Under the pieces are notes generated by a model. That model worked only from the letters and a program-made list of their open reading frames with translations. It did not search any database and had not been told where the DNA came from. A program made the position numbers and the translations under genes. From Deltaproteobacteria bacterium (GTDB lineage Bacteria > Myxococcota_A > UBA796 > CAJQPC01), in NCBI GenBank assembly GCA_016717595.1, contig JADKFE010000010.1, positions 1-49,030 on the forward strand: a DNA stretch of 49,030 nucleotides, written 5' to 3'. Below, one piece after another: positions 1-21,712 of the stretch. Within the stretch, counting starts at the first letter, position 1; each line of letters starts with the position of its first letter.

Positions 1-1054
1 TTGTCGTTGTTGTAGATGTTGACGTCATGCTCTATGGAGGAGAGGCTCTCAAGGCCATCGATGCTCTCCAGCTTCGGGTTGTCGCAGACATTTAAACTGC
101 CCACCGAGGAGAGGGCCTCAAGGCCCGCCATGCTCGTCAGGGAGGAGTTGTCAGACACGTCCAGTTGATCGCGCACATCTTGAAGGCTAGAGAGGCCGGT
201 GAAATCCTTCAAGCTGTAGTTGTCCTCGACTGTGAAGTTGGTCCCGATGGAGACGAGCCCCTCAAGGCCCTCAAGGCTCTTGAGCCCTGAGTTGCCGGTC
301 AGATTAATCCTACCGGCCACGGAGATCAGGTTCTCAAGGCCCTTGAGATTTTTGAGCCCGTGGTTGGACTCCATGATGAGGCTCCCGCTCACGGCGGTGA
401 GACAGCTTAAGGACGCGATCTGTTCGGTGGTGGCGGAGGTGAGGTATAGGGTTCCACCTAAGCTGCGCTCACAATACCCAGCACAGAACTCCTTCATCTC
501 CCAGGAGAATATATCACCACGGGCGCTGTCGGAGGGCAACCAACCAGACGGGTTCGTGTCGTCACAGTCATCCGCGCCAACGAAGCCGTCGCCATCGCCG
601 TCCTCATCCAGGGTGCTCGGATCGCAGTCGTTGTCCAGACCGTCGAACGGGATCTCTTCAGTCCCCAGCGCGGGGTTGGTGTCGTCACAGTCCTCCGCCA
701 TGTTGACCCCGTCGCCGTCGAGATCGTCATCAAGGGTGCTCGGATCGCAGTCGTTGTCCACGCCGTCGTAGGTGACCTCGGCGGCGTCGGGGTGTACCGC
801 CGGGTCATCGTCGTCGCAGTCCTCAGCGAGCACAAACCCGTCGCCGTCGGCGTCCTGGGCTCGGTCTGGGTGTCGGCCTCGGTGTCGGTCTCGGTGTCGG
901 CCTCAGTGTCGGTCTGGCTGTCGGTCTGGCTGTCGGTCTGGGTGTCAGTCTGGGTGTCAGTCTGGCTGTCGGTCTCGGTGTCTTCCCCAGGCTCCTTGTC
1001 ACCACAGGCGGAGAGGAGGCTGAGGGCAAACGTGACGGAGAGGAGGGGGCGCAT
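1..1054 (-). CDS. Secreted lipoprotein (paralog B): lipobox signal, (TDTQ)n linker, 3 MopE/TSP3-like Ca-binding Cys/Asp repeats, LRR domain; 3' end runs off window; apparent -1 frameshift near 857-859
   Basis: Translation from 1054 gives MRPLLSVTFALSLLSAC (lipobox LLSAC) then DTETDSQTDTQ repeats. After ~nt 857 the YDGxDNDCDPST...DGDG motifs and LSGLEGL-type LRRs read only in the +1 frame. Expected CCCC is read as CCC when compared with paralog A. Confidence 0.55.
868..990 (-). repeat. 12-bp tandem coding repeat (gacacccagacc-like, ~10 units) encoding a (TDTQ/TDSQ/TETD)n linker
   Basis: Direct inspection of 868-990: gtctgggtgtcg/gtctcggtgtcg units on the plus strand. Confidence 0.7.
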
Positions 1055-1126
1055 CTTGGCTCCGAGGGTGATTCCGTGAACTGGATCAGAGGTCGTGACA
1101 AGCTAGCCAGCGCGGCGTCGCGAAGG

Positions 1127-3264
1127 TCAGGCGCCGGGCAGGTGCCCAGATTGTCGGTGTTCGTCACCGTGCCAGTGAACGCGGTGAGCTGCGCGACGAG
1201 GGTGCCCACCTCATCTTCGCACAAGCTGTCGTTGCTCGGCACAGAGATGTCCCAGCCCACGGTGGTGAGGGCGTCGAGGTCGGAGAGGCTCGTCAGCGAC
1301 GGGTTGTCCGAGACGTTGAGGTAATAGCTCACTTTAACGAGCGCGTTGAGGCCCGAGAGGCTCGTCAGCGACGGGTTGTCGCGAACATAGACAGAGCCGC
1401 TCAACGAGGTGACATTGGGGAGCCCCGAGAGGCTCACCAGCGAGGCGTTGTCTTCGATGCGAAGGTCCCTCTTTAAGTTGGAGAGCCCTTCGAGGCCCGA
1501 GAGGCTCGTCAGCGAGGCGTTGCTCTTCACCTTGAGGGAGTCGCCAATGGTGGTCAACGAGTCAAGGCCCGAGAGGCTTGACAGGTTGCTGTTGGAGGCG
1601 ATCAACAGGCCTCCCGCCAACGAGGTGAGGCCCTCAAGGCCGGTGAGACGCTCCAATGCGTAGTTTCCGAAGATGTGAGTCTCCCCACCGATGAAGGTCA
1701 GGCCCGAGAGCCCCGAGAGGTCTAAGAGCTGATAATTGTAGTCAATGCTGACGTCTCCACCCACGGAGGAGAGGTTCTCAAGGCCCGAGAGGGTGGTTAT
1801 CGTCCTGTTGCTGTACACGATGAGATCACCGTCGATGGCGGTGAGACAGGTCAAGGCGGCGACGTCGGTGGTCTTGGCGGCGGAGAGGTCCAGATCTCCG
1901 CCGATGCGCCGCTCACAGTACCCCGTGCAGAAGAGGGAGGTGAAGCTGGCGCCCAGATCTCCGGAGTACGTGTCAAGGGCCAGCCACCCGAGCGGGTTGG
2001 TGTCGTCGCAGTCGTCCGCCATGGCGAGGCCGTCTCCGTCGAGGTCGTCATCGGGGGTGCTCGGATCACAGTCGTTGTCGAGGCCGTCGTAGGCGATCTC
2101 GACCGCGTCGGGGCTCACCGCCGGGTCGCCGTCGTCACAGTCCGCCGCCGCGACGAGGCCGTCACCGTCGAGGTCGTCGTCGCGGGTGCTCGGATCACAG
2201 TCGTTGTCGAGCCCGTCGTAGGGTAGCTCGGCGCCGCCCACGGTTGAGTCGCCGTCGTCGCAGTCCGCCGCCGCGACGAGGCCGTCGCCGTCGAGGTCGT
2301 CGTCGAGCGTCGTCGGGTCACAGTCGTTGTGGAGTGCGTCGTAGGGCCGCTCGGCGCCACCCACGGTTGAGTCGCCGTCGTCGCAGTCCGCCGCCGCGAC
2401 GAGGCCGTCACCGTCGAGGTCGTCGCCGCGGGTGCTCGGATCACAGTCGTTGTCGAGGCCGTCGTAGGCGATCTCGACCGCGTCGGGGCTCACCGCCGGG
2501 TCGCCGTCGTCACAGTCCGCCGCCGCGACGAGGCCGTCACCGTCGAGGTCGTCGTCGCGGGTGCTCGGATCACAGTCGTTGTCGACGCCGTCGTAGGGCA
2601 GCTCGGCGCCGCCTAGGGCTGAGTCGCCGTCGTCGCAGTCGGCCGCCGCGACGAGGCCGTCGCCGTCGAGGTCGTCGTCGAGGGTGCTCGAATCACAGTC
2701 GTTGTCGACGCCGTCGTAGGTAGCTCTGCGCCGCCCACGGTTGAATCGCCGTCGTCGCAGTCGTCCGCCGCGACGAGGCCGTCGCCGTCGAGGTCGTCGT
2801 CGAGGGTGCTCGAATCACAGTCGTTGTCGACGCCGTCGTAGGGTAGCTCTGCGCCGCCCACGGTTGAGTCGCCGTCGTCGCAGTCGTCCGCCGCGACGAG
2901 GCCGTCGCCGTCGAGGTCGTCGTCGGGGGTGCTCACGTCACAGTCGTTGTCGACGCCGTCGTAGGGGTAGCTCGGCGCCGCCCACGGCGGGGTCGCCGTC
3001 GTCACAGTCGTCCGCCGCGACGAGGCCGTCGCCGTCGAGGTCGTCGTCGGGGGTGCTCGGATCACAGTCGTTGTCGACGCCGTCGTAGGGCCGCTCTGCG
3101 CCGCCTATGGTTGAGTCGCCGTCGTCGCAGTCAGCCGCCGCGACGAGGCCGTCGCCGTCGCCGTCTTGGGGCTCGGTTTCATCCTGCGTGTCCTCCGCGG
3201 GCTCTTTGTCGCCGCAGGCGGAGAGGAGGCTGAGGGCGAGCGCTGCGGCGAGGAGCGGGCGCAT
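1127..3264 (-). pseudogene. Secreted lipoprotein (paralog A): lipobox signal, ~9 tandem MopE/TSP3-like Ca-binding repeats, C-terminal LRR domain; disrupted by compensating +1/-1 indels in G-runs (~2958 and ~2719) and probable loss of stop at ~1130
   Basis: MRPLLAAALALSLLSAC starts at 3264. Repeats DGLVAAADCDDGDSTVGGAELPYDGVDNDCDPSTPDDDL read in frame 0 from 3264 to ~2960, in frame 2 between ~2960 and ~2719, then in frame 0 again. Unit at 2955 has gtagggg (4 G) and unit at 2715 has gtagg (2 G), versus gtaggg in the other units. The C-terminal ...NLGTCPAPDL reads through where paralog C ends CPSS*. Confidence 0.55.
2100..3170 (-). repeat. ~120-bp tandem coding repeats (about 9 units), each encoding one ~40-aa Cys/Asp-rich Ca-binding module
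   Basis: The unit gagtcgccgtcgtcgcagtc[c/g]gccgccgcgacgaggccgtc recurs at ~2247, 2367, 2492, 2614, 2742, 2862, 2985 and 3105. Confidence 0.8.
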
Positions 3265-3345
3265 CGGGGCTCCAACGGTGATCCCGTCGATGGGACCGTG
3301 CGTGTACGACACCATGGAGGCCGCAACAGGCGGGATGGATCACCC

Positions 3346-3653: not shown

Positions 3654-5185
3654 CTACGCCCCCACCCCAGCCGCCACCGTCAACGCCGGCCTCGGCGACT
3701 CCTCCCCGCGCGCCGCCCGCGCCACAGAGTGCGGCGCGAACTCCGCGAACGCCCGCTTGTAGTCGGCAAAGGCGCCCCCCGCGCGCACGGCGTGCATCAC
3801 CGCGAGGCCGGTCTGGGCGTCGCCCTGGGCCAACACCGCCTCCACCCAGGCCCAGCGCGCGGAGGTGGCGCGCAGCTCGACGCGGCCGCGGCTGGGCTTA
3901 AACGCCGTCTCCAGGCGCTTGAGGCGGGACTCCACCACCTTCAGGCCCACGAAGCCATCATTGAGCATGGGCGTGTTGAGCTTGGGCACAAAGGGCGCCA
4001 TGCCGATGGCGACGGGGTGGATCGCGCCGAGCTCCAAGGAGAAGCGCACGAGCTCGTCGAGATCGGCGTCGGTCTCGCCGGGCACGCCGATCATCATGTA
4101 GACCTTGAGCACCTTGTAGCGGTGCTCGGCGGCCTGGCGGGCGCAGTCGATGAGGTGCTGCTCGGTGGTGCCTTTGGACATCTCCCGGCGCAGGCGCTGG
4201 CTCGCGGCGTCTGAGGCCACGGTGAGGGTGCTGTAGCCGCCTTGGCGCAGAAGCTCGGCGATGCGGGGCTTGCGGGCCACACGGTCGGCGCGCAGGGAGC
4301 TGATGCCGACGCCCTTCCCGGCGGCGATCAGCGCCTCTAAGATGGGGACCAGCTCGGGGTGATCGGAGATCGCCGCGCCGACGAGGCCCACCCGGGGGGC
4401 GTAGTCGGGGACGAGGGAGAGCACGCGGTCGGCGGTGACCAGGCGCATCCCGCCGTTCGTGCTGCGGCGCATCACGCAGAAGGTGCACTGGCGATGGCAG
4501 CCGCGCTCCCCTCCAGCAGAAACATGCTGGAGAGCTCGGCGTCGGGGGCGATGATGCGGCTGCGGGCGGGGAGCTCGGCGTCGGAGGCCTTGGCGATGGT
4601 GGGCAGGCGGTCGCCGTCGCGCTCGGGCAGGTAACCGCCGGGCAGGGCGGCCACGGCGGCGCGTAAGGCGTCCAAGCCGCCGGAGATCGCGGCCTCGACG
4701 GCGGGCACCACCGTCTCCTCAGCCTCGCCCAGGAGCATGGCGTCGACAAACGGCGCGGCGGGGAGCGGGTTCGAGAAGGTGAGCGGGCCGCCGAGCAGCA
4801 CCAGGGGATCGTAGCCCGTGCGATCTTCGCGGCGGGCGGGGATGCCCGCGAGCTCAAAGGCCGTGAGCATCCCGGCGAGCTCAAGCTCGTAGGCCAAAGA
4901 CACGCCGATGATGGGGAAGTCCCGCAGCGGGGTCTGCGTCTCGTAGGTGCACAGGGGCAGGCGGGAGCGGCGCCAGGCGTCTACGTCGTCGGGTAAAAAC
5001 GCGCGCTCGACGGCGAACCCGGCGCGGGTGAGCAGCTCGTGAATCCACTGGAAGCCAAGGGACGACATGCCCGCGCGGTACGGCGAGGGGTAGAGCAGGG
5101 CCACGCGCGCCTGACCGGGGGTGAAGCCCGGCCCACGCTCGCGGGCGAGGCGCTCGACGATCGGCTCGTTGTGCTTCCAGGGCAT
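3654..5185 (-). CDS. B12-binding-domain radical SAM protein, split by a frameshift near 4508-4511
   Basis: The N-terminal ORF (5185-4472) has a cobalamin-binding-like fold (VALLYPSPYRAGMSSLGFQWIHELL). The radical SAM motif GCHRQCTFC is read only after shifting frame at the junction gaggggagcgcggctgccat. The C-terminal ORF (4475-3654) carries the TIM-barrel part (MMIGVPGETDADLDEL). Confidence 0.6.
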
Positions 5186-5262
5186 AGACTTCCTGCGAGG
5201 GGGGATGTACAGGTTATGAAGGTTCGAGCCCGCGCGCCCGCGCTTGTGAGGATTCTCCCCCT

Positions 5263-5997
5263 ATGCTGTCGTCCCTCGCCGTGCTGCTCCTGGGTCTAGC
5301 CCCCGCTGAGGCCGCGGAGTCCGTCTCCCTCCGTTACCTGCTCGCCGTCGATGGTGAGGTCATCGGGCACCGCGATCTCAAGATCAACTACCTGCCCACG
5401 GACTCCGGCGAGCTGCGGCTCCTGGAGTCGTTCACCGAGCTGACCTTCTCCATCGCCGGGCAGCCCTACACCTACAAGCAGCGCCTCGGCGGCCTGGGCG
5501 GCGGCAACTTCAGCTCGGCGATCAGCGACAACGGCACCGGCCGCGAGGTGCAGGCCGTACGATCCAGCCTCGGCTGGACGGTCACCGTCGCTGAAGGCAA
5601 GACGGCGGAGGTCTACGCCTTGGGCCCCGCGGCCTTTGACCTCACCTCCCTCTCCTTGCTCGATCCCGCCGTGGCCGAGAGCCTCGCCGGGCGCAGCACG
5701 CTCAAGGTGCTCGTCGCCGAGACGGGCGGCGTGATGGAGGGCCCCCTTCGCCAGGCCGCCGACGTGCAGATCAAGCTCGGCGGCCAGATGATCACCTGCG
5801 ACGAGTACGTCTGGAGCGTGCCCGAGGGTGAGGTCCGCCTGGACTACGGCCCTGAGGGCCACCTGATGCGCTACACCACCCGGGTCGCGGGCAAGGTCAT
5901 CACCGCGACGCTGGACCGCCCTCCCCCACCGCGCACCTACGGCACGACCATGGACGGGCCGCTGATTCAGTCGAGCGTCGGCGAAGAGACGCTCTAA
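5263..5997 (+). CDS. Secreted hypothetical protein (signal peptide)
   Basis: N-terminal MLSSLAVLLLGLAPAEAAES signal. The 244-aa ORF has coding-like composition and its stop overlaps the convergent hcrB-like stop by 4 nt. Confidence 0.45.
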   Translation: MLSSLAVLLLGLAPAEAAESVSLRYLLAVDGEVIGHRDLKINYLPTDSGELRLLESFTELTFSIAGQPYTYKQRLGGLGGGNFSSAISDNGTGREVQAVRSSLGWTVTVAEGKTAEVYALGPAAFDLTSLSLLDPAVAESLAGRSTLKVLVAETGGVMEGPLRQAADVQIKLGGQMITCDEYVWSVPEGEVRLDYGPEGHLMRYTTRVAGKVITATLDRPPPPRTYGTTMDGPLIQSSVGEETL

Positions 5998-6962
5998 ACG
6001 CCGCTGATCGCCGCTTCAAGGGCCCGGCGCACCTCAACCCGCACCATCTTCTTGCGCCAGGGCGCGGGCCAGACATGCGTCGAGAGCGGGCTCACCTGCT
6101 TATACGCGGCCTCGGCCACGGCCTCGACGCCGCCCGCCTCCCAGGCCTCGGCCACGCCGCCCAGCTCCACCGGGCGCGGGCCCACGGACGAGACGACCAC
6201 GCGGGGGCCCCGATCCGGGTCAAACGCCGCCGCCGTGAGCAAGAGCGGGTAGTCGATGCTGCCCCGGGCGCGCAGCTTGCGGTGAACCACACGGCCCGCG
6301 GGCGGCGGGGGCAAGATCACGGCGGTGAGCAGCTCATCCGGGGCGCGGCGGATCCAGTCGCGGCCATCATCGCCATACAGCGCGGCGACGGCCACCCGGC
6401 GGGCGCCCCGCGTAGACACCAGCTCCACCTCGGCGTCATAGAGCAGGAGCCCCGGCGCGGTGTCGGCGGAGTGCGCGGCGTAACAGCCCTTGCCTTTGGG
6501 GGCGACGTGGCAGATCGCCCCCTCGGGCGCGCTGTGGCACTTCAAGCAGCCGCCGAGCGCCCCCCGCCAGAACGTCGACTGGTTGTACCAGGCGCAGCGG
6601 GTGTCGAGCATCAGGTTGCCGCCAAGGGTGCCCATGGCCTGAATCGTAGACGTGGCGATGGTGCGTGTGGCGGCGGCCAAGGCCGGGTACAGGCTCAACA
6701 CCCGCACATCCCGACCCACCGCCCGCAGCGTGACGCCGGCGCCGATGCGTAGGCCGCCCGCCTCGGTGACGGAGATCTCTTGCAGCGCCGACACCCCACC
6801 CAGACGGATGAGCGTCGGCGGGGTGAACAGACCGTACTTCATCGAGGGCAGAAGATCCGTGCCCCCAGCGATGAGCCGGGCCTGGGGGTGGTCGGTCAGC
6901 ATCTGCGCGGCGTCGGAGACGGCGCGGGGCGAGAGCACAGAGAAGGTCGGCAGCGGCAGCAT
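5994..6962 (-). CDS. Molybdopterin dehydrogenase FAD-binding subunit with Cys-rich [4Fe-4S]-type insert (4-hydroxybenzoyl-CoA reductase beta/HcrB-like)
   Basis: RLIAGGTDLLP FAD-binding motif plus insert CAWYNQSTFWRGALGGCLKCHSAPEGAICHVAPKGKGC. Confidence 0.7.
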   Translation of the reverse strand: MLPLPTFSVLSPRAVSDAAQMLTDHPQARLIAGGTDLLPSMKYGLFTPPTLIRLGGVSALQEISVTEAGGLRIGAGVTLRAVGRDVRVLSLYPALAAATRTIATSTIQAMGTLGGNLMLDTRCAWYNQSTFWRGALGGCLKCHSAPEGAICHVAPKGKGCYAAHSADTAPGLLLYDAEVELVSTRGARRVAVAALYGDDGRDWIRRAPDELLTAVILPPPPAGRVVHRKLRARGSIDYPLLLTAAAFDPDRGPRVVVSSVGPRPVELGGVAEAWEAGGVEAVAEAAYKQVSPLSTHVWPAPWRKKMVRVEVRRALEAAISGV

Positions 6963-6965
6963 AGC

Positions 6966-9284
6966 TCAGGCTCCGTCAAAGGAGGCGCGGCGGGCCTCAC
7001 GGTCGCGGCGCTCGATGGCCTTGAGCACACGGTCGGGGGTGAACGGCGCCTCGTTCATCCACACGCCGCAGGCGTCAAAGATGGCGTTGGCGATGGCGGG
7101 CACCGTGGAGAGCTGGGGGCCCTCCCCGGCCTCTTTGGCGCCGAAGGGGCCCTCCTTGTCGTTGGACTCCACGATGATCGTGATGATCTCCGGCGTCTCA
7201 AACACCGTGGGGATCTTGTACTCCAAGATCGACGGCGCCCGGTGCAGACCGTGTTTGGTGTAGCTCTGCTCCTCAGCCAGGGCCTCCCCCACGCCCATGT
7301 ACACGCAGCCCTCGATCTGGCCCTCCACGATGGTGGGGTTTAAGGCCTTGCCGCAGTCGTGCGCCGCCCAGATGCGCTCGACGGTGACGAAGCCCGTCTC
7401 CGGGTCTACCACCACCTCGGCCACCTGGGCGGTGAACGAGTACGCCGGAGACGGCCCCACGGACTGGCGGCGGAAGCGGTTGCCGATCTTCGGGGGCTTG
7501 TAGTGCCCCACAAAGCCTAAGGTGCCGTGGCGCTCTTCAGCGAGCTGCACGGCCTCGGCAAAATCGAGGGCCTTCTCTGGCGCAGACTCGCGGAACACCT
7601 TCCCGCCGAGCATCACCACGTCCTCGCCGCCGAGCTTCTCCGCCGCGGCGGCCCGCATCACCGCGTAGAGCTGATCCGCGGCCATCTTGGCGGCGTTGCC
7701 CGCGAAGAAGGTCACTCGCGAGGAGTACGAGCCCAGGTCTACGGGCGTGAGCCCGGTGTCGGCCTCCAACACCACACAGTCGGTCTCGGGGATGCCCAGG
7801 CGCCCGGCCACGATGGCCGCGAGCATGTGGTTCGAGCCCTGGCCGATGTCGGCGGTGCCCGAGAGGATCGACACCCGCCCCGAGCGGTCGGCGCAGATCT
7901 GCACGGCGCTCTGGGGCATCTCCGACTGCACGATCGGGTGCAGGGCCCCGCACATATACGCCGAGGTGGCCAGGCCGATGCCCCGGTTGGGGCCGAGCTT
8001 GCCGCGCTTCTCCAAATACCCCGAGGCGGCGAGCACCTTGTCAACACACTCTTTGAGCGCGACGGACGTGATGCGCAGGCCGTTGGAGGTCTCTGTGTCG
8101 GGCTCCACACAGTTCTTGAGGCGCAGGGCGTCGGGGCTCATGCCGATGGCGTTCGCGAGCTTGTCGAGGTGAAGCTCTAAGGCGAAGCGCGGCTGAATCG
8201 CGCCGTGGCCTCGTTTGGGGCCGCAGGGCGGGTGGTTTGTATAGCAGCGGTGGCTCTCAAACTGCCAGTGATCGAGCTTGTAGGGCAGGGGCAAGAACAC
8301 ACCGAAGTAGTACGCCGTCACCACGCCGTAGCTGGCATACGCCCCGCCCGCGGCCCAGGCCTTAAAGTCGGCGGCGGTGATGCGCCCGTCGTTGGTGACG
8401 CCCATCTTCAGGGTCATCCGTGTGGGGTGACGGCCTCGGTGGGCATAAAACACCTCCTCACGGTCCAGGATAAACTTCACCGGGCGGCCGGTCTTTCGCG
8501 CCAAGGCCGCCGCGCACAGCTCGTTGGCGAAGGGGTCGGACTTGCCGCCATAACCCGCGCCCACATCGGGCTTGATCACCCGCACGTCCTGCTCACGCAT
8601 CCCCAGCACCTTGGACACGATGCGGTGCAGGTAGTGGGGGATCTGTGTAGACGACCAGAGGGTGAGCTTGCCGTCTGGGTGGGGTTGGGCCAGGGCGACC
8701 TGGGTCTCCAGAGGCACATGGGTGGAGCCGGGGTAGTCGTAATTCGACTCGATGATCACATCGGCCTCGGCGAACCCGGCGGCGGGGTCACCGTATTTCT
8801 GGAACACCCGGCGTAAGACGTTTGTGTCGCCCTTGCGGCGGCGCTCGTCATGCAGGAGCGGCTTGTCGGGGTTCAGCGCGTCCTCGATGGTGAACACGCC
8901 CTCTAGGGGCTCGTACTCCACACGGATGAGCGCGGCGGCGCGGCGGGCCGTCTCTTGATCCACGGCGGCCACGGCGGCGACCTCGTCCCCGATGAACAGC
9001 ACCTTGCCCACGGCCAAGGCGTGCTCGTCTTGGGCGACGGGGATGACGCCATAGGGCGTGGGGAGATCGGCCCCGGTGAGCACGGCGTAGACCCCGGGCA
9101 GGGCCAAGGCCGCGCTCACGTCGATGCTCAAGATTCGGGCGTGGGCGTGGGGCGAGCGGTTGAAGGCCCCGTGCAGCATCCCGGGCAAGGTGAGGTCGTC
9201 GGTGAAGCGGGCGGCGCCGGTGATCTTGGGCAAGCCGTCGATCTTGCCGCCGCGACGGCCAACAGGCGAATCAGGCTCGCTCAT
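6966..9284 (-). CDS. Xanthine dehydrogenase family molybdopterin-binding large subunit (HcrA/CoxL-like)
   Basis: 772 aa. Ald_Xan_dh N-terminal lid (KITGAARFTDDLTLPGMLHGAF) and MoCo-binding domains. Confidence 0.8.
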   Translation of the reverse strand: MSEPDSPVGRRGGKIDGLPKITGAARFTDDLTLPGMLHGAFNRSPHAHARILSIDVSAALALPGVYAVLTGADLPTPYGVIPVAQDEHALAVGKVLFIGDEVAAVAAVDQETARRAAALIRVEYEPLEGVFTIEDALNPDKPLLHDERRRKGDTNVLRRVFQKYGDPAAGFAEADVIIESNYDYPGSTHVPLETQVALAQPHPDGKLTLWSSTQIPHYLHRIVSKVLGMREQDVRVIKPDVGAGYGGKSDPFANELCAAALARKTGRPVKFILDREEVFYAHRGRHPTRMTLKMGVTNDGRITAADFKAWAAGGAYASYGVVTAYYFGVFLPLPYKLDHWQFESHRCYTNHPPCGPKRGHGAIQPRFALELHLDKLANAIGMSPDALRLKNCVEPDTETSNGLRITSVALKECVDKVLAASGYLEKRGKLGPNRGIGLATSAYMCGALHPIVQSEMPQSAVQICADRSGRVSILSGTADIGQGSNHMLAAIVAGRLGIPETDCVVLEADTGLTPVDLGSYSSRVTFFAGNAAKMAADQLYAVMRAAAAEKLGGEDVVMLGGKVFRESAPEKALDFAEAVQLAEERHGTLGFVGHYKPPKIGNRFRRQSVGPSPAYSFTAQVAEVVVDPETGFVTVERIWAAHDCGKALNPTIVEGQIEGCVYMGVGEALAEEQSYTKHGLHRAPSILEYKIPTVFETPEIITIIVESNDKEGPFGAKEAGEGPQLSTVPAIANAIFDACGVWMNEAPFTPDRVLKAIERRDREARRASFDGA

Positions 9285-9796
9285 GTGGACCTCCCGTTCA
9301 TCCGCTCGCGGGCCTGGCGGGCGGCGGCGAGGATCTTCGTGTAGCCCGTGCAGCGGCAGATGTTGGCGCCGAGCACCTCGTTGAGCTCGGCGTCGGTCGG
9401 GTCGGGCCGCTCGTCAAACAGGGCCTTGAGCGCCATGACGAAGCCCGGCGTGCAATACCCACACTGGGCGGCGACCTGCTCGTGGAACGCGGCCTGGATG
9501 GGGTGCAGCGCGCCGCCGACGGCCACCCCCTCGACGGTGAGCAGCTCGGCGTCCTGAGCCTCGGCGGCCAGGGTGATGCACGAGAGCCGCGGCGCGCCGT
9601 TCACCAAGACCGTACACGCGCCGCAGTCGCCGACGTCGCAGCCGTGCTTGGAGCCGGTGAGGCCAAGGTCTTGGCGCAGGAGGTTGAGGAGCGTGCGGTT
9701 CGCGGGGATCAACAGGCGTCTGCGGTCGCCGTTGACCCTCAGCGTGAGGACCAGATCGTCATCGGGCTCGGTGGGCATGGCCGCCACTATAACCAA
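9281..9796 (-). CDS. (2Fe-2S)-binding small subunit (HcrC/CoxS-like)
   Basis: GCDVGDCGACTV and CGYCTPG...CRCTGY motifs. ATGA overlap with the large-subunit gene. Confidence 0.8.
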   Translation of the reverse strand: MVIVAAMPTEPDDDLVLTLRVNGDRRRLLIPANRTLLNLLRQDLGLTGSKHGCDVGDCGACTVLVNGAPRLSCITLAAEAQDAELLTVEGVAVGGALHPIQAAFHEQVAAQCGYCTPGFVMALKALFDERPDPTDAELNEVLGANICRCTGYTKILAAARQARERMNGRST

Positions 9797-9811
9797 TGGC
9801 TTCGGGGGCGG

Positions 9812-12037
9812 TCAGACGCGCTGGGCGCCTCGGGCGCGGCGCAGGCGATCGGACTCCCCTTCAGCGCGGCGGGCGGCGCGCACCTCGTCCTCCAAGCGGC
9901 GCAGAGCCTCTCCGGCGGCGGAGACCCGGTCTTGCTCGCCGATCAGCTCTTGGCGGGCTTTGCGGGCGGCGCCGCCGATGTCGAGGAGGCGCGCCGCCGT
10001 GGCCGTGAGCTTGGACTCCCAGCGGGCGTGCTCCTCTAAGGTGGCCTCGCGGTCGGCCTTGGCGGCGAGCAGCTCGGGGCGCTCGGTGGGGTCGGGGCGC
10101 TGACCGGCCTGCTCCATCGTCTCGACGCGGCGCAAGCGGGCCTCGATCTGGGCGAGGTCTTGGGCGATGGCCTCGGGGCGCAGCTCTTTGAGCCGACCAT
10201 CGAGGCGATCGGCCTCGGCGGCCAGGTCAGCGGCCTCGGCGCGCAGCTCGACGACGGTGCGGCGTAAGTCAGCCTCGGCGGGGGTGGGCAGCTCGGCCTG
10301 GCCGATCGCCAGCTCTAAGGCGGCGAGGGACTCCTCAACCCGGGCGAGGAGCTGGCCGCCGCGGGTCTTGGGCGGAGGCGGCGCGACCACCGGCGCGGCG
10401 ACGTTCGGCGGCGCAGGGGCGGCGGCGGCAGGTTCAGCGGCGGCGGCGCCGCGCTCCACACGCACCTGGGGGCGGCTGGCGAGCAGCTCGGGCAGACGCT
10501 CGGGGGTGACGTGGGCGCGCAGGTCTCGGCCATAGGCCAAGGGCACCTTGTCGGCGTTGCGCCCGGCGTTGGAGGCGGTCACCATCACGACGACGGAGAT
10601 GAGGATCATCACCGGGAGCGCCGCCATGGCCGAGCCGAAGGTGAGCCCCACGGCGATGGCCCACAACACCCACATCGGCCCCAGCAGGTTGGGCAGGGTG
10701 CGCATCACGCGGTTCACCCGGCCGTCTTCGTCTTCAGCGCGGCGGCGTTTTTTGGCGACGAAGCCCCGGCTCTCGGCCAAGGCGGCGAGGTTATCGACGG
10801 TGTCTTCGCTCACGCCAGAGACGAGGCGGAAGCGGCGCTGGTCGAGCACGGGGCTCACCAACAGGGCGTCGATGGGCAGCCCAGCCCGCAGCGCGACGCC
10901 GCGGGCGAGGAGCTCGGCGTCGGTGATCTCCTTGGACTCCGCCGTCCACTCTTCAGGGAGCTTGGGCAGGCCGAGCTGCACCACCACCTTGTTGATCGCC
11001 TCGGCGGCGTAGCGGGCGCTCGTCTTGCCCGCCCGGGCGCTGCGCCGGGCTTGCCTGCGGCTGGCTTGGCTGGAGTGGCGAAGCTCCAGCTCAAAGCGGC
11101 CTTCAGGCAAGGCCAACGGCGCGGGCTCTAAGGTGTAGCTGGGCTGGGGTGGCGGCGGCGGCGGGGGCTCGTCTTTGGGCGGCGCGCGGCGGTTCTGAGC
11201 CCGCGGCGGCGGGGCGACGATGCGCCCACGAAGGGCCTCGGCGACCTCAGCGGCGCCTTGGGGCCGCTCGTCTGGGGAGAGGCGCAAGAGCGCGTGGATG
11301 ATGGCGCAGAGGTCATCCGGCAGCTCAGGGCGCAGGCTGGCGAGGGGCTCGACCTCGCCGGAGAGCTGGCGTTTGAGCACGGCGGCGGCGTTGGGCCCGG
11401 CGAAGGGCGCCCGGCCTGAAGCGGCGTAGTACAGCACCGTGCCCAAGGAGTAGAGGTCGCTGCGGGGGTCGGCGCGCTCGCCGTCGTAGACCTCGGGGGC
11501 GGCGTGCCCGGCGGTGCCCAAGGCCCCGGTGTGCCGGGTGGACTGCCACTGCTCTAGCCGGGCGAGGCCAAAGTCGGTGAGCGTCGCCACGCCCGCGTCG
11601 TCGATCATCACGTTCGCCGGGGTGATGTCGCGGTGCAGCACGCCGGCGCGGTGGGCGGCGGCGAGCACGTCGGCCAGCCGCGCGCCGATGGCCCGCAGCG
11701 CCGTGCCGCCGATGGGGCCTTCAGCGGCCACCCGCTCGGAGAGGGTGCGGCCGGGGTGGTACGGCATCGACAAGGCGAGGTGCCCGTCGAGCTCGTGCAG
11801 CTCTTGGGCGAGCAGCGCGCCCTCATGTTTGATGAGCCCCGCCGTCATCACCTCGCGGCGCAGGCGCTCTCGGGTGGAGGCGTCGCCGACGAGGTGGGCG
11901 TGGAGGATCTTCAGCGCGACCCGGGCGCCGCGCACCCGATCTTCAGCCAGCCAGACCGTCGCCATGCCCCCACGGCCCAGCTCACCGATGAGCGTGAACC
12001 GCTCACCGAGCACCGCGCCCCGGGCCAAGGCGCTCAA
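9812..12037 (-). CDS. Membrane-anchored Ser/Thr protein kinase with Pro-rich linker, TM segment and C-terminal coiled coil
   Basis: Hanks kinase motifs GELGRGGMATVWLA, VALK, HRDITPANVMI, DFG. Hydrophobic VLWAIAVGLTFGSAMAALPVMILISVV. Ends 15 nt before hcrC-like start. Confidence 0.8.
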   Translation of the reverse strand: MSALARGAVLGERFTLIGELGRGGMATVWLAEDRVRGARVALKILHAHLVGDASTRERLRREVMTAGLIKHEGALLAQELHELDGHLALSMPYHPGRTLSERVAAEGPIGGTALRAIGARLADVLAAAHRAGVLHRDITPANVMIDDAGVATLTDFGLARLEQWQSTRHTGALGTAGHAAPEVYDGERADPRSDLYSLGTVLYYAASGRAPFAGPNAAAVLKRQLSGEVEPLASLRPELPDDLCAIIHALLRLSPDERPQGAAEVAEALRGRIVAPPPRAQNRRAPPKDEPPPPPPPQPSYTLEPAPLALPEGRFELELRHSSQASRRQARRSARAGKTSARYAAEAINKVVVQLGLPKLPEEWTAESKEITDAELLARGVALRAGLPIDALLVSPVLDQRRFRLVSGVSEDTVDNLAALAESRGFVAKKRRRAEDEDGRVNRVMRTLPNLLGPMWVLWAIAVGLTFGSAMAALPVMILISVVVMVTASNAGRNADKVPLAYGRDLRAHVTPERLPELLASRPQVRVERGAAAAEPAAAAPAPPNVAAPVVAPPPPKTRGGQLLARVEESLAALELAIGQAELPTPAEADLRRTVVELRAEAADLAAEADRLDGRLKELRPEAIAQDLAQIEARLRRVETMEQAGQRPDPTERPELLAAKADREATLEEHARWESKLTATAARLLDIGGAARKARQELIGEQDRVSAAGEALRRLEDEVRAARRAEGESDRLRRARGAQRV

Positions 12038-12113
12038 CCGCGCACCGGAGGCACCCGACCCGAGCTTGTCTGACGCGCCGCTTCAGTCACTGAGCACTTC
12101 CCTCCCCTGCTCC

Positions 12114-12944
12114 CTATTGTGGGGTGGCCGCCGCTGGCAAACCTTTCCCCAAACGGGCCATGGTGACCCACGCGGCGACGTCATCGACCTCCCAAGAGTT
12201 GTCGGACCCACGCCAGAGCAGGCGGCCGTCACCGTCGAGCACCAGGATGTGCAGGCTGTGGAGGATGTCGCCTTGGCTCTCGACCCGGCTGGCCCCGGCG
12301 CGTAACAACAGCGTCTTGAGCGCGTCGAGCTCTAAGCGGGCGAAGGTCCACGTTGCGGGGTTCGCGCCGCGCTCGGCGCCGTAGGCCTTGAGCACCTCCA
12401 GAGAGTCCCGGGCGGGGTCCAAGGTGACGCTCACGATGCGCCCGTGGCCGAGCTGGCCTTGAAGCTCCTTGAGCTTGCTCGCCAACAAGGGGCAGGCCTC
12501 GGGCATGGGGCAAGACGTGAACAAGAAGGTGAGCACCGTCGGCACGCCTTGGCCCGCGCCGATGAGCACCGGGCCGTCCACGCCGGGCATCGTGAGCGCC
12601 GGGAGCTGCTCCCCTTCAGCCAGGGCGATCACCGCGTCGGGGGCCAGGGCCAGGGGCTCCTCGTGGCCGGTGACCTTGGCGCCGATGATCCGCACCGTGC
12701 CGTCTTCAGCGGTCATCAGGTTCGCCTGGATGAGATCCCCAGGGCGAAGCTGCCGGGCGAGGTTGGGATCGACGACGAAGGTGGTGGCGCCCTCCTCAAA
12801 GGCGCCGGGCACGGGGCCGTGCTCCAGCCGCACGCTGTGCTGGCCGACGTCGCGCACCACGCCGTTGACGGAGTAGGTGTCTCCAGCGACAAAGTTACAG
12901 CCGGCCAGAGCGAAGACGGCGATGAGCCCGCGCATCAGAGGCAC
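12114..12944 (-). CDS. SCO1/SenC-family copper chaperone lipoprotein (thioredoxin-like)
   Basis: LAGC lipobox and FTSCPMPEACP (CxxxC) motif. Confidence 0.65.
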   Translation of the reverse strand: MPLMRGLIAVFALAGCNFVAGDTYSVNGVVRDVGQHSVRLEHGPVPGAFEEGATTFVVDPNLARQLRPGDLIQANLMTAEDGTVRIIGAKVTGHEEPLALAPDAVIALAEGEQLPALTMPGVDGPVLIGAGQGVPTVLTFLFTSCPMPEACPLLASKLKELQGQLGHGRIVSVTLDPARDSLEVLKAYGAERGANPATWTFARLELDALKTLLLRAGASRVESQGDILHSLHILVLDGDGRLLWRGSDNSWEVDDVAAWVTMARLGKGLPAAATPQ

Positions 12945-15989: not shown

Positions 15990-16943
15990 TCAGCTCTCTG
16001 GGGCGTCGCTGCCGTTGTGGACGTTCACGATGGTGAGCTGCTCGACGGCGATGCGCACCTGGCCGCTGAGGCGGCGGCGCTCAAACAGCCGCGCGGCGCC
16101 CTCTACGCCCGCTTGGGCCACCTGCTCCCGGGCGCGGAAGAGGTGCAGGGTGAGCAGGCCGGGCTCTAAGGACAACATCCGCGAGAGCTCATCGGCGTAA
16201 CGCCAGCCCAGCTCCGCGGGGCGAACCCCGGCGGCGAGATCCTCTAGCCGCGCCCGGGCCAAGGCCAAGGTCACGAGGTGATGCACCCGAGAGCTGAGCA
16301 CGATGGCGCCGCCCCGGTGCTTGATCTCCACATCGACGTGCTCTTGATCTTGGCTCACGCGGAGGGTGAGGGCGATGGTCTCTAAGCGTGGGCGCAGAGA
16401 GGTGTCCCAGGTGGTGGGCAGCTCAGCGCTTCGCGGCGCGACGGGCAAGATGAGGCGCCAAGACTCGTCTCCTAAGACGAGGCGCTGGCCATCGAGCGCC
16501 TCGGACTCCAGGCCCTCGTGCTCGACGATCCAGTGGCCGTCGTTGCCTTCGTAGACGATGGCGAGCATCCCTTCCGCGCTGGGCAGGCTGAGGATCTCGG
16601 CCTCGGACACCCGCAGGAGCTGATCGGCCTCTCGGACCGCCGCCGCGCCTGGGGGGCCGTCGTGGGCGAGCACGAAGCCGCGGTGGGGGCCGAAGCGCAC
16701 GCTGACGCCGGCGCTGAGCCCGCGACCGCGGCCGCTCTCCAGGCGCTCGCCGTCTACAAAAGTGCCGTTTCGACTGCCAAGATCACGCAGTTGCCACTCT
16801 TTGCCGGTCCAGCGTAAAGCGGCGTGCTCAGCGCTGATCTGGCGATCGTCGATGCGCACGGCGCAGTGGCCCGCGCGGCCGATGAGCGTGCGCGCGCCGA
16901 GGGCGATCAGGGCGTGGTCGTCGTCGGATCGGAGAATTCCCAT
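15990..16943 (-). CDS. FHA-domain protein
   Basis: N-terminal FHA signature LIGRAGHCAVRIDDRQISAEHAALRW...LRDLGSRNGTFVDG. Confidence 0.75.
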   Translation of the reverse strand: MGILRSDDDHALIALGARTLIGRAGHCAVRIDDRQISAEHAALRWTGKEWQLRDLGSRNGTFVDGERLESGRGRGLSAGVSVRFGPHRGFVLAHDGPPGAAAVREADQLLRVSEAEILSLPSAEGMLAIVYEGNDGHWIVEHEGLESEALDGQRLVLGDESWRLILPVAPRSAELPTTWDTSLRPRLETIALTLRVSQDQEHVDVEIKHRGGAIVLSSRVHHLVTLALARARLEDLAAGVRPAELGWRYADELSRMLSLEPGLLTLHLFRAREQVAQAGVEGAARLFERRRLSGQVRIAVEQLTIVNVHNGSDAPES

Positions 16944-17130
16944 AGGCGGGAACGTAGCACGCTAGGTCACTCTGAACGCCCCCAACAGACGCCCTTGAGG
17001 GCCTGAACCAATCAAAGTCCGCACGATACCCGCCGAAATCAATTGAAAGAGAGGCGGCGAAGCGCCTGATCTATGCTGCGCTAGGTTCGCGCGGCGCGTG
17101 ACCCTGCGACCCCCTCACGGAGAATGACTG

Positions 17131-18604: not shown

Positions 18605-21083
18605 GGAACGGGCCACACCACCCGCAGCCCCATGGTCAGAAAGCGGCGCTCAGGGGTGTTGCCGAAGCGGGTGGCGAGGCGCTGGGTCATCGGGGGGGAG
18701 CCAAAAAAGCCCCCCCGCACCGCGCGGTGGGTGCCTGCCTCTGGGATATCCACCGCTCGCCCAGCCTGAACTGGCCCTCGCACCGACCACCAGTTGCGGC
18801 ACCAAGTGCGGGCGTTTCCGGCGAGGTCACGCACGCCGTAGGGGCTCTCGTCCGCCTCAAACTCCCCGACCGAGAGCAGGCCGGGCGGCGAAGGAACGGA
18901 GCCCAACACCGCGACCAGCGTGGCTCTAGCTCCCGGCCCCAAGGGGTGTACCGCCCGTCCACACCGCGCCCGGCCTTCTCGATCTCAAGCTCGTTGGGCA
19001 GGTGTCCGCCCATCCAAGCGGCGGCGCGCGCGGCGGCGTCCCACGAGATCGCCGTCACCGGATGATTGACCTCCCCGGGACGGCCGAGCACCACACGGTC
19101 CCCGCTGCGCACGAGATACTGGTCTTTTATGCTGACCCAGGGCCAACAACTCTCCACCCCCGCCTCATCCCCAGCGGCGATGAGCGCCTCCAAAAACGCC
19201 GCGTACTCCCCCAAGGTCACCGGGAAACGCCCCAAGACGAAGCCGTCTACCCACACCCGCTGCCGGGGCAGGCTGTCGGCGGCGAAGGGGTCTCCGCCGA
19301 CGATGCAGTAGCCCGGCGGGATGTAGACCTGGTCGTCACGAAGCTCGCCGGGCTCGGGGATCACGATGAGCGCGGGCTCACCCCCCTCGGGAGGCACGCC
19401 GTCCCAGCGCCCGGCGCGCTCCATGAGCACGGGGTAACGAACGGTGACGCCGTCGGCCTCCAGGGTGACGAGCCAAGATCCCCGGGGCACGGTCACCTCA
19501 CGCAAGGGCGTCACGCCGAGGCGCCGCTCGGGCTCGGGCACGAGGCGACGACCCTGCTCGACGAAGCGGTGCAGCCAGGCGACGGCGGGCCGGGACGTGC
19601 GGATCGACAGCGCGCCGTCGCCCTTGAGGTAGGCCGCGTGTCGCCCGCGGTCGTGGCTCGCGAGCAGCAGCTCCGCCCGCTGCGTCGCCAACGGATCAAG
19701 CTGGCGATCGGCGCGCTCGAGCTCGTCGCGGTAGTGGTCGGCGAGGAGCGCGTGGGCCTCGGGAAGCTCGGGATCCCGGTTGAGCGCGGCGCGGAGATCC
19801 TGATGCCAGGCGACCTCTCGTAGGGTCACCTCGGACTCTAAGGCGGCGGCGCGGTCCTGCATCTCCCAGATGGGCAGCTTGGACTCGACGGGCGCTTCAG
19901 CGCTCAACGACTCCAAGAGCGAGGCGGCGTGGGCCCGAAGCGCCTCGGCCTCCCGCTGGAGCTTGAGGATCCCCGGGCGCTGGGCCTCGGCGCGGCGCGT
20001 CTGGGCGAGGGCCTCGGCGCGGCGCAACGAGCCGTCGAGCCACAACGAGAGCGCCTCGGCCATCGCGCCGGCGTCGGGGTAGCGGTGAATGGGGTCGGGC
20101 ATCAGCGCCCGGCCGCAGATGTGGCGCAGCTCCGGGGGGAGCTCCGCGCGCTCGATGGCCTCGGGCCAGCGCGGCGGGTCGGAGACGAGGCGCCGCCAGA
20201 TGAGCTTGGGGTCGCCCTCCAGGGGGCCTCGACCGCACAGGACGCTGTGCAGCACGGCGCCCAGCCCGTACACGTCCGAGGCTGGCCCCACCTGATCGTG
20301 CTGGCCCCGCGCCTGCTCTGGCGACATAAACGCCGGGGTGCCCAGCACCGCGCCGCCCAAGGTGACGCCCTCGTTCTCCCAGACCGGCGCCCCGGCGAAG
20401 GGCGGCAGCTCCGGCGCGCCGATCCACCGCGCCAGGCCCCAGTCCATCACCCGCACCTCACCGAAGCGGCCCACCATGAGGTTCGCGGGCTTGAGGTCGC
20501 GGTGCAGCACCCCGCGGCTGTGGGCGTACCCGACGGCGTCGCAGATGCTTCGCACCAGGGTGACGAGGCGGTGAACCACGTCGGGGCCCACGGCCGGGCC
20601 GGTGATCATCTCGCCCAGCGTCTTGCCATCCACCAAGGTCATCGTGAACCAGAGGCGCCCGTCAAGAAGCTCTCCGCGGTCCATCACCGAGACGACGCCG
20701 GGGTGCTGCAGCCGCGCCGTGGTCGCGATCTCCCCCAGAAACCTCGCCCGCGCGGCGGCGCTCTCCAGGAGCTCCCAGCCGAGCACCTTCATCGCCACAG
20801 GCACCCGCAGCTTCCGATCCCAGGCCCGGCGAACCTCGCCCATGCCGCCCCGGGCGATGAGCCCGAGATCGTGGTACCGCGCCTCGGGCGACTCAAAGGC
20901 CGCCACGGCCGCGGGCTCCCCGTCTGGGGTCCAGGTGGTCTCGTCGTGCATGATGAATGCTACAGCGCGGAGGGATCCCCGGTCAAGGCGGAGGCGCTGC
21001 CGCGCCCTTGATGGCCCAGGCGGCGATTGACGCCGGGGGGTGGCGGCGGGCGCCTCGCCGGGTGAGAGTACAGCGTGCCTCAC
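18580..21083 (-). CDS. Ser/Thr protein kinase fused to a C-terminal formylglycine-generating-enzyme (FGE/SUMF1) domain; frameshift near 18937-18947
   Basis: Kinase motifs GGMGEVRRA, AMK, HRDLKPANLMV, DWG. FGE-like block YTPWG...SPYGVRDLAGNARTWC...RAVRGGFF...GLRVVW continues in another frame at a cccc/gggg run. Confidence 0.7.
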
Positions 21084-21100
21084 CTCCTCTGGAGCCGCTG

Positions 21101-21712
21101 ATGTCGATCCCGGTCCCCCTTCGTTGTGATTGTGGCGCTGTTGCCGGGGAGATCACCGTGAGCCCCGGCGCCGGCAACCACTGCGTCTGTTTCTGCGACG
21201 ACTGCCAGGCCTTCGCCGCCGCCTTGGGCCGCGAGGACGTGCTCGACGCCTGGGGCGGCACCGACATCTACCAGACCGCCCCTGCGCGTCTGCGCATCAC
21301 CCAAGGTCAAGACGAGCTGCGCGCCCTGCGCCTCAACCCCAAGGGCCTCGTGCGCTGGTACACCGCCTGCTGCAAGACGCCCGTGGGCAACATGATGGCC
21401 ACGCCCCGCTCCCCCTTCGTCGGCGTCATCAGCCGCTTCATCGCTCTGGACGCCGAGGCCCGCGACGCGGCCGTCGGCCCGGTGACCTCCCACGTCATGG
21501 GGCGCTTCGCCAAAGGCGGCTGCCCGCCCCACGCCCACCCCAAGGTGCCGCTCTCGGCGATGCCCGGCATCGCCAAGGTGCTGCTGCGCAACATCGTCAC
21601 CGGCGGCCACAGCCCCTCGCCGTTCATCGTCGATGGCGCCTGGCGGGTTGAGCCCGAGGTGCTGAGCCCCGAGGCCCGGGCCAAGCTCAGCCCAGGCGCG
21701 CCCACGCCTTGA
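21101..21712 (+). CDS. Cys-rich hypothetical protein (GFA/CENP-V-like Zn-binding fold suspected)
   Basis: MSIPVPLRCDCGAVAGEI...NHCVCFCDDCQAF pattern. GGAG sits upstream of the ATG. Confidence 0.45.
   Translation: MSIPVPLRCDCGAVAGEITVSPGAGNHCVCFCDDCQAFAAALGREDVLDAWGGTDIYQTAPARLRITQGQDELRALRLNPKGLVRWYTACCKTPVGNMMATPRSPFVGVISRFIALDAEARDAAVGPVTSHVMGRFAKGGCPPHAHPKVPLSAMPGIAKVLLRNIVTGGHSPSPFIVDGAWRVEPEVLSPEARAKLSPGAPTP

Follow-up and report, generated by a model that had tools for sequence, protein, structure and literature searches.

4-Hydroxybenzoyl-coenzyme A (CoA) reductase (HCR) is taken to mark strictly anaerobic degradation of aromatic compounds, and the enzyme of Thauera is oxygen-sensitive and dependent on a low-potential ferredoxin. 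In the same xanthine oxidase family, the three-subunit periplasmic aldehyde oxidoreductase PaoABC of E. coli has a flavin adenine dinucleotide (FAD) subunit that binds a [4Fe-4S] cluster, its genes being ordered small-medium-large (S-M-L). The sole other known reductive dehydroxylase of the family besides HCR is the urolithin C 9-dehydroxylase UcdCFO/Ucdh. On the aerobic side of benzoyl-CoA metabolism, canonical box clusters comprise boxABC together with boxR, boxD and a ligase gene (PMC10803450), and the BoxB protein requires an external reductase (PMC5489048). Here we describe an HCR-like operon in a DNA stretch of 49,030 nucleotides (nt) from a Deltaproteobacteria bacterium (assembly GCA_016717595.1, contig JADKFE010000010.1, positions 1 to 49,030 of the forward strand), hereafter the window. 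The operon is a further member of an already known enzyme kind, and belongs to a large uncharacterised monophyletic clade from uncultured Myxococcota that is distinct from canonical HcrCAB. The most interesting lead is found at the level of this clade, where HCR-like cassettes are linked to boxCB without boxA.

An HCR-like operon

The three genes lie on the minus strand in the order small-large-medium (S-L-M), with the domains (called by Pfam and NCBIfam) and coordinates given in the first-pass annotation. They encode a small subunit for two [2Fe-2S] clusters (9281-9778 from an ATG, or 9281-9796 from a TTG; Fer2, and Fer2_2 at 1e-28), a large molybdopterin (Moco) subunit of 772 amino acids (6966-9284; Ald_Xan_dh_C plus MoCoBD_1/2) and a medium FAD subunit of 322 amino acids (5994-6962; FAD_binding_5 at 1.6e-38). 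The gene spacing that had been read as translational coupling also held up on inspection: the small- and large-subunit genes overlap in ATGA, the large- and medium-subunit genes stand 3 nt apart, and GGAG-type Shine-Dalgarno sites precede the large- and medium-subunit starts. The small subunit had been placed only 15 nt past the stop codon of an upstream kinase gene, which is correct for the TTG at 9796; the likelier start is the ATG at 9778, 33 nt past that stop, because near relatives are called at 165 amino acids and an MP-x-E N-terminus is conserved across the clade. The resulting N-terminus, MPTEPDDDLVL, has no twin-arginine leader. The small subunit contains exactly eight Cys residues (47/52/55/67 and 106/109/141/143), in the patterns C-x4-C-x2-C-x11-C and C-x2-C-x31-C-x-C expected for two [2Fe-2S] clusters.

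The large subunit reached 837.5 bits against TIGR03194, the HcrA model, the next family being XdhA with 522 bits, and among solved structures it matched 1rm6_A with 604 bits, followed by CoxL with 305. Its identity with HcrA, in an alignment trimmed to 734 columns, is 44%. From a search of 1.84 billion cluster representatives we built a neighbour-joining tree of 154 tips, without bootstrap support, in which a superclade of 29 tips holds both the window and Thauera HcrA. The clade of the window is itself monophyletic in this tree, and its sister is the representative P0121. The large subunit thus groups with HcrA, and not with CO dehydrogenase or nicotinate dehydrogenase. Moreover, the HcrA-type residues His360 (whose position we take to be that of Phe914 in bovine xanthine oxidase), HRGR at 282-285 and Glu718 within AKE-x-GEG are common to the whole superclade and to the clade, and most of the 125 representatives outside the superclade have other residues there; the motif residues Q214, R285 and E721 are also intact. 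Altogether, the HCR-like identity proposed at first pass is borne out, HcrA being a far nearer relative of the large subunit than CoxL, XdhB or nicotinate dehydrogenase.

The FAD subunit scored 262.9 bits against TIGR03195 and 104 against XdhB, and its structure matches were 1rm6_B (178.9 bits) and then PaoB (5g5g_B, 120.4 bits). Its only five Cys residues (123, 139, 142, 151 and 160) form the pattern C-x15-C-x2-C-x8-C-x8-C, exactly as first read, in a loop spanning residues 123-160 (6483..6596, minus strand). Four of them, C123, C139, C151 and C160, align on C122, C138, C146 and C155 of Thauera HcrB, which we take to be the [4Fe-4S] ligands described in the structure paper. The remaining C142 is extra: HcrB has a Tyr at this position, and just after it the FAD subunit carries four inserted residues, HSAP, placed between the second and third ligands. 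With all four ligand Cys residues kept, the insert is not a generic CoxM-like loop devoid of Cys conservation. It had also been held to set HcrB apart from ordinary medium subunits; PaoB aligns through the loop as well, so the feature is not exclusive to HcrB.

A clade from uncultured Myxococcota and its genomic partners

Homologues at 63-75% identity number in the thousands in metagenomic data. A locus scan that kept one genome per species gave 80 loci, all of them from metagenome-assembled genomes of lake and marine origin, mostly labelled Myxococcota or Deltaproteobacteria, and none from a cultured isolate. About 70 of the 80 carry an orthologous S-L-M cassette, with a large-subunit identity to the window of 56-98%. 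The Cys-rich loop could be followed through these loci: the core C-x15-C-x7-C-x8-C is kept in the ~70 orthologous loci as well as in L088-L090, which represent three other HCR-like lineages, the extra Cys ('CLKC') occurs in about half of the orthologous loci, the four-residue insertion is found in the group of the window, and the whole loop is absent from distant loci (37-46% identity) with the gene order M-S-L. A side observation concerns the public records of these assemblies, several of which are filed as Klebsiella pneumoniae, Bifidobacterium breve, Enterobacterales or under similarly implausible names (L009, L010, L012, L014, L020, L022, L055, L072, L073 and others) and appear to be taxonomically mislabelled.

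Among the recurrent partners of the cassette are genes of the Box pathway. Among the ~51 orthologous loci with at least 6 kilobases (kb) of upstream DNA, 22 (~43%) carry a divergent boxR together with boxC and boxB, 0-3 kb upstream and on the same strand. Box-linked loci include L003 (4362-8314), L013, L016, L017, L026, L030, L038 (3102-7055) and L073, and in L030, L038 and L073 the cassette directly adjoins boxC-boxB. The NCBIfam scores were 752 bits for BoxB (cut-off 499), 707 for BoxC (cut-off 712) and 235 for the BoxR-like regulator (cut-off 204). Within ~8 kb of the cassette in 23 box-linked loci, scans with regular-expression motifs, rather than profile models, found no open reading frame (ORF) like the 2x[4Fe-4S] ferredoxin BoxA, like the aldehyde dehydrogenase BoxD or like an AMP-forming ligase. 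In the searchable literature, only passing mentions of HCR-Box coupling or of HCR in Myxococcota were found, and an HCR-like cassette beside boxCB without boxA appears to be undescribed there.

A second recurrent partner is an LpxL-like acyltransferase gene (PF03279), which stands immediately downstream of the medium-subunit gene in ~20 loci and overlaps it by 4 nt in L005 (13280-14224) and L007 (4004-4996). The box and acyltransferase linkages are scattered over both subclades, and both are present in L073, which makes an ancestral order boxCB-SLM-acyltransferase plausible. Neither the acyltransferase nor box genes occur within the 49 kb of the window, whose operon is thus an orphan copy of its clade. 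Other recurrent neighbours in the box-linked loci (FG-GAP/MopE, ThiD, ATP sulfurylase, aminotransferase, AIR-synthase-like and APH genes) were set aside as unrelated housekeeping genes. In L034 (3505-7286), a second, unrelated xanthine-oxidase-family cassette lies between boxB and the S-L-M cassette; it consists of a medium subunit and a fused small-large subunit that has 28% identity with the window's large subunit.

With regard to the sister lineages, P0121 is a fused small-large HCR-like subunit (L088, 1-14450) surrounded by genes for BcrB-like, BcrA/D-like and Had-like proteins, an acyl-CoA dehydrogenase, an indolepyruvate:ferredoxin oxidoreductase and MocA, a cluster that is a probable island of anaerobic aryl-CoA degradation. 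Because P0121 adjoins Bcr-like genes, both phylogenetic neighbours of the clade, the Thauera HCR and the P0121 group, are tied to aryl-CoA metabolism.

The cassette also seems to carry its own transcription signal. Two sigma-70-like matches were found in 5000-12400, for 0.2 expected. One of them (7201..7174) lies inside the large-subunit gene, and the other (CTGACC-18 nt-TATAGT, 9815..9786, minus strand) straddles the stop codon of the kinase, its -10 box ending 7 nt before the ATG at 9778. In 39 of 43 non-identical clade loci, a (T/A)TA element stands 8-17 nt ahead of the ATG of the small-subunit gene, irrespective of the gene upstream, and only 1.5% of background windows contain such an element. 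The longer form of the motif, GG(T/A)TA(G), falls 9-14 nt upstream of the ATG in 39 of the 43 loci (within 9779-9796 in the window). The TA motif could have been an in-frame stop codon, an explanation that was rejected as the offsets -13, -12 and -11 are about equally frequent. Judged from this conservation, the motif would be a -10-type element giving a leaderless or short-leader messenger RNA (mRNA), and the cassette would therefore need no kinase promoter, although some read-through from the kinase may occur. Ratios of non-synonymous to synonymous substitution rates (dN/dS), computed against two relatives, were 0.03-0.09 for the small subunit, 0.04-0.06 for the large, 0.11-0.14 for the medium and 0.16-0.20 for the kinase. 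This purifying selection, strong on the three subunits, indicates that all four genes are functional.

Neighbouring genes and the setting of the window

The gene upstream of the operon (9812-12037, minus strand) encodes a membrane Hanks-type Ser/Thr kinase of 741 amino acids with a Pkinase domain at residues 15-262 (E 8e-35). The transmembrane anchor proposed for it corresponds to a 37-residue hydrophobic stretch at 455-492. The motifs GxGxxG, VALK, DFG and APE are present. In the catalytic loop (around residues 135-143), Thr replaces the usual Lys, giving HRDITPAN both in the window and in two relatives; a second kinase of the window has a normal HRDLKPAN. Judging by this loop, the upstream kinase may be atypical or a pseudokinase. 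Directly upstream of it and on the same strand is a gene (12114-12944) for a fusion of a CusF-like copper-binding domain and SCO1/SenC, whose position is kept in near relatives and which points to aerobic life with a cytochrome oxidase. Two further genes within 10 kb, at 18687-21152 and 15990-16961 (minus strand), encode the second Ser/Thr kinase, to which an FGE-sulfatase domain is fused, and an FHA protein.

Downstream, a convergent ORF of 244 amino acids (ORF244; 5263-5997, plus strand) overlaps the stop codon of the medium-subunit gene. It has a signal-peptide-like N-terminus, a third-position G+C (GC3) of 0.88, 92-97% conservation in near relatives and a dN/dS of 0.11-0.15, and yielded only a weak match to DUF6134. 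Beyond it stands the gene of the TIGR03960-like radical-SAM protein (3654-5185, minus strand; Radical_SAM_N2 plus Radical_SAM). The first-pass annotation had it follow the operon on the same strand; the strand is right, and ORF244 lies in between. Its reading frame is also broken, so that the gene is read in two frames, 4472-5185 and 3654-4475. One G is missing in a G-run at 4508-4511, right before the CHRQCTFC (CxxxCxxC) motif: the run is GGGG in the window and GGGGG in L067, whose local identity is 99%, and the protein of L002 is intact, with 509 amino acids. The two halves scored 92.9 and 80.1 bits against TIGR03960, a B12-binding-type radical-SAM model (cut-off 462.3), and CHRQCTFC is read only after correction of the frame. 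The frameshift is either an assembly error or the mark of a very recent pseudogene.

Only in L001, L002, L008 and L067 does the cassette come with the kinase, the SCO1 gene, ORF244 and the radical-SAM gene; the large subunits of these four match that of the window at 96% identity or more, and L067 and the window share 92% DNA identity over 13.7 kb. In none of the other loci is a kinase directly upstream of the cassette, and nothing homologous to the C-terminal region of the kinase occurs in the loci of the ~66 further orthologous Myxococcota cassettes. Accordingly, the kinase and radical-SAM genes look like lineage-specific incidental neighbours, and this context of the window is uninformative on function.

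At ~70% G+C and with housekeeping genes such as ftsZ, rimP-nusA-infB, topA and dprA, the window looks like core chromosome of a myxobacterium. Besides the two Ser/Thr kinases and the FHA protein, it contains metal-binding MopE repeats: a MopE-repeat lipoprotein gene (823-3315, minus strand) is broken into three frames (823-2493, 2613-3065 and 2938-3315), and a tandem array at 2002-3160 within it holds 9.3 copies of a 123-nt (41-amino-acid) unit. These frame breaks are probably further indel errors inside repeats. A PTPR-rich tail stems from a 12-nt repeat (861-982).

Proposed function and comparison with known systems

The enzyme can be pictured as a cytoplasmic molybdo-flavo-iron-sulfur protein of the HCR type. 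Its cassette probably has a promoter of its own, which would give a leaderless or short-leader mRNA, and translation of the three genes is probably coupled. Electrons entering at the surface [4Fe-4S] cluster would reach Mo by way of FAD and the two [2Fe-2S] clusters. There, a para-hydroxyaryl-CoA, most simply 4-hydroxybenzoyl-CoA, would lose its hydroxyl group by reduction and yield benzoyl-CoA, for which this lineage would use the oxygen-dependent Box pathway and not a benzoyl-CoA reductase. We give a probability of about 0.5 to this reading, in which the enzyme may act as a reductive dehydroxylase of 4-hydroxybenzoyl-CoA, or of a close hydroxyaryl-CoA, whose product enters the Box pathway; we favour it because the cofactor chain is kept, the active site is HcrA-like, the phylogenetic neighbours belong to aryl-CoA metabolism and the clade occurs beside consumers of benzoyl-CoA. 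What the data show directly is homology, cofactor motifs, clade structure and the statistics of gene neighbourhoods; substrate, direction of electron flow, electron donor and promoter function are inferred from these, since the tree has no bootstraps, the motif scans are crude and the genomes were searched for the large subunit only.

Several observations weigh against this dehydroxylase reading. All three subunits remain below the curated equivalog cut-offs of the HCR models: the large subunit below 994.55 bits, as do its ten nearest cluster representatives, the FAD subunit below 404.55, and the small subunit, with 172.9 bits against TIGR03193, below 257.8. For this reason the enzyme, as far as homology tells, is a close HCR relative for which 'HCR-like' is the right name and the status of true HCR is not established. 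The clade has invariant changes of its own in the active-site region (GAGYGG for GGGFG, YMCGALH and H486), the tree that joins it to HcrA comes without bootstraps, and two further HCR-like representatives, P0122 and P0123, stand in unrelated gene contexts. The window holds no box genes, no benzoyl-CoA reductase gene and no ferredoxin-regenerating system, nor were genes of aromatic catabolism, CoA ligases, thioesterases, ferredoxins or Moco maturation found across its whole 49 kb. Moreover, the adjacent SCO1/SenC gene and the box genes of relatives suggest an aerobic host, at odds with an oxygen-sensitive, ferredoxin-dependent enzyme type, and no electron donor is evident here. The clade might be an oxygen-compatible HCR-type enzyme recruited into the Box pathway, or, more radically, even replace the missing BoxA and BoxD, a proposal that we regard as quite unlikely.

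The low model scores and the mere 44% identity to HcrA could also mean that the substrate is unrelated to benzoyl-CoA, with the enzyme being a dehydroxylase of a free phenolic compound, like UcdCFO/Ucdh, or a hydroxylase or aldehyde oxidoreductase perhaps connected to the acyltransferase. A reductive dehydroxylase with a non-CoA substrate is already known in the family, the PF03279 gene follows the cassette in ~20 orthologous loci, box genes are missing from the majority of loci whose flanking DNA is long enough, and the lack of aromatic-catabolism genes in the window and the contexts of P0122 and P0123 point the same way. We still hold this explanation to be unlikely, as the box linkage greatly exceeds chance and recurs across the phylogeny, the active-site residues specific to the superclade are common to HcrA, and Ucdh has no [4Fe-4S] loop and is ~33% identical to HcrA. 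The box linkage itself admits an interpretation in the oxidative direction that is usual for the family, with an acyl-CoA aldehyde oxidoreductase inside the Box pathway: the product of BoxC, 3,4-dehydroadipyl-CoA semialdehyde, would be oxidised at Mo, and its electrons would run through [2Fe-2S], FAD and [4Fe-4S] to the di-iron centre of BoxB, the cassette replacing both BoxD and BoxA. Such a cycle would balance, with two electrons in and two out, and it would agree with the motif scans that found no BoxA-, BoxD- or ligase-like ORF, with the need of BoxB for an external reductase (PMC5489048) and with the position of the cassette beside boxB in L030, L038 and L073, where canonical clusters hold boxA (PMC10803450). 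The second-closest structural relative of the FAD subunit, PaoB, also belongs to an aldehyde oxidoreductase. We nevertheless judge it improbable: the active-site motifs are HcrA-like and not like those of other family members, the sister lineage with benzoyl-CoA-reductase-like genes fits a reductive role, boxA and boxD could be elsewhere in these fragmentary assemblies, the window has no box genes, and an electron loop of this kind is without known precedent.

A different proposal, which takes up the first-pass emphasis on the neighbours, is that kinase and redox operon share a transcript, that the operon is under the kinase's control and that the radical-SAM gene is part of the same system. 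The genes share a strand, the gap is 15-33 nt without a terminator-like site, the order is kept in relatives ~92% identical in DNA, and the kinase is under purifying selection. The weight placed on this linkage could not be sustained, as it is limited to four near-identical genomes: the order is missing from ~66 other orthologous cassettes, whose loci have no homologue of the kinase C-terminal region, the cassette has a conserved promoter-like motif ahead of it regardless of the upstream neighbour, and the radical-SAM gene, frameshifted in the window, lies behind a convergent gene. With two Ser/Thr kinases and an FHA protein in 49 kb, the genome is kinase-rich, so that a chance adjacency would not be rare, and we consider kinase control very improbable. 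We thus return to the reductive dehydroxylation of a hydroxyaryl-CoA as the preferred reading.

Whatever the substrate, the clade constitutes a large and strongly conserved sister group of HCR in apparently aerobic uncultured Myxococcota, and its repeated linkage to boxCB without boxA points to an unexplored junction of the anaerobic and aerobic benzoyl-CoA routes. If the clade is indeed an oxygen-compatible enzyme recruited into the Box pathway, it could supply benzoyl-CoA from hydroxyaryl-CoAs under oxic conditions; in the more radical case, the aldehyde made by BoxC would be oxidised and its electrons returned to BoxB through the [4Fe-4S] cluster. For annotation, the data are a warning not to label these genes as true HCR and not to take the kinase neighbour as regulatory.

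Among described systems, the closest is HCR itself (HcrCAB/HbaBCD), represented by the enzyme of Thauera aromatica (PDB 1RM6/1SB3), which has the same set of subunits and, as hcrCAB, the same S-L-M gene order; no other system matches the window's large and medium subunits better (604 and 179 bits). All four [4Fe-4S] Cys ligands of its beta-subunit loop, an insertion of ~40 residues, are kept, as are Q214, HRGR, H360 and AKE-x-GEG in the large subunit. The differences are the four-residue insertion and extra Cys of the loop, the GAGYGG, YMCGALH and H486 of the clade, the 44% identity of the large subunit, an aerobic-looking host lineage, and relatives that are linked to boxCB instead of to benzoyl-CoA reductase or 4-hydroxybenzoate-CoA ligase. 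E. coli PaoABC (PDB 5G5G/5G5H) likewise has three subunits and belongs to the xanthine oxidase family; its FAD subunit aligns through the Cys insert (120 bits), with a Cys spacing in the loop unlike that of the window. Its PaoC reached 171 bits in the structure search and 260.7 with NCBIfam (cut-off 1180), the small subunit of the window scored 136.7 bits against the PaoA model (cut-off 322), and this subunit, unlike the Pao system, has no twin-arginine leader. UcdCFO/Ucdh of Enterocloster bolteae, considered here through its published description, is a xanthine-oxidase-family enzyme whose reductive reaction takes off a phenolic OH standing para to a carbonyl; it differs by the missing loop and the distance to HcrA noted above, by its non-CoA substrate and by its source, a gut Clostridium. 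Finally, the canonical boxABC-boxR-boxD-bcl cluster of Aromatoleum/Azoarcus and Paraburkholderia shares boxR, boxC and boxB, scoring at or near the cut-offs, with the loci of the relatives of the window; in these, where boxA, boxD and a ligase gene were not seen, it is the HCR-like cassette that comes after boxB instead.

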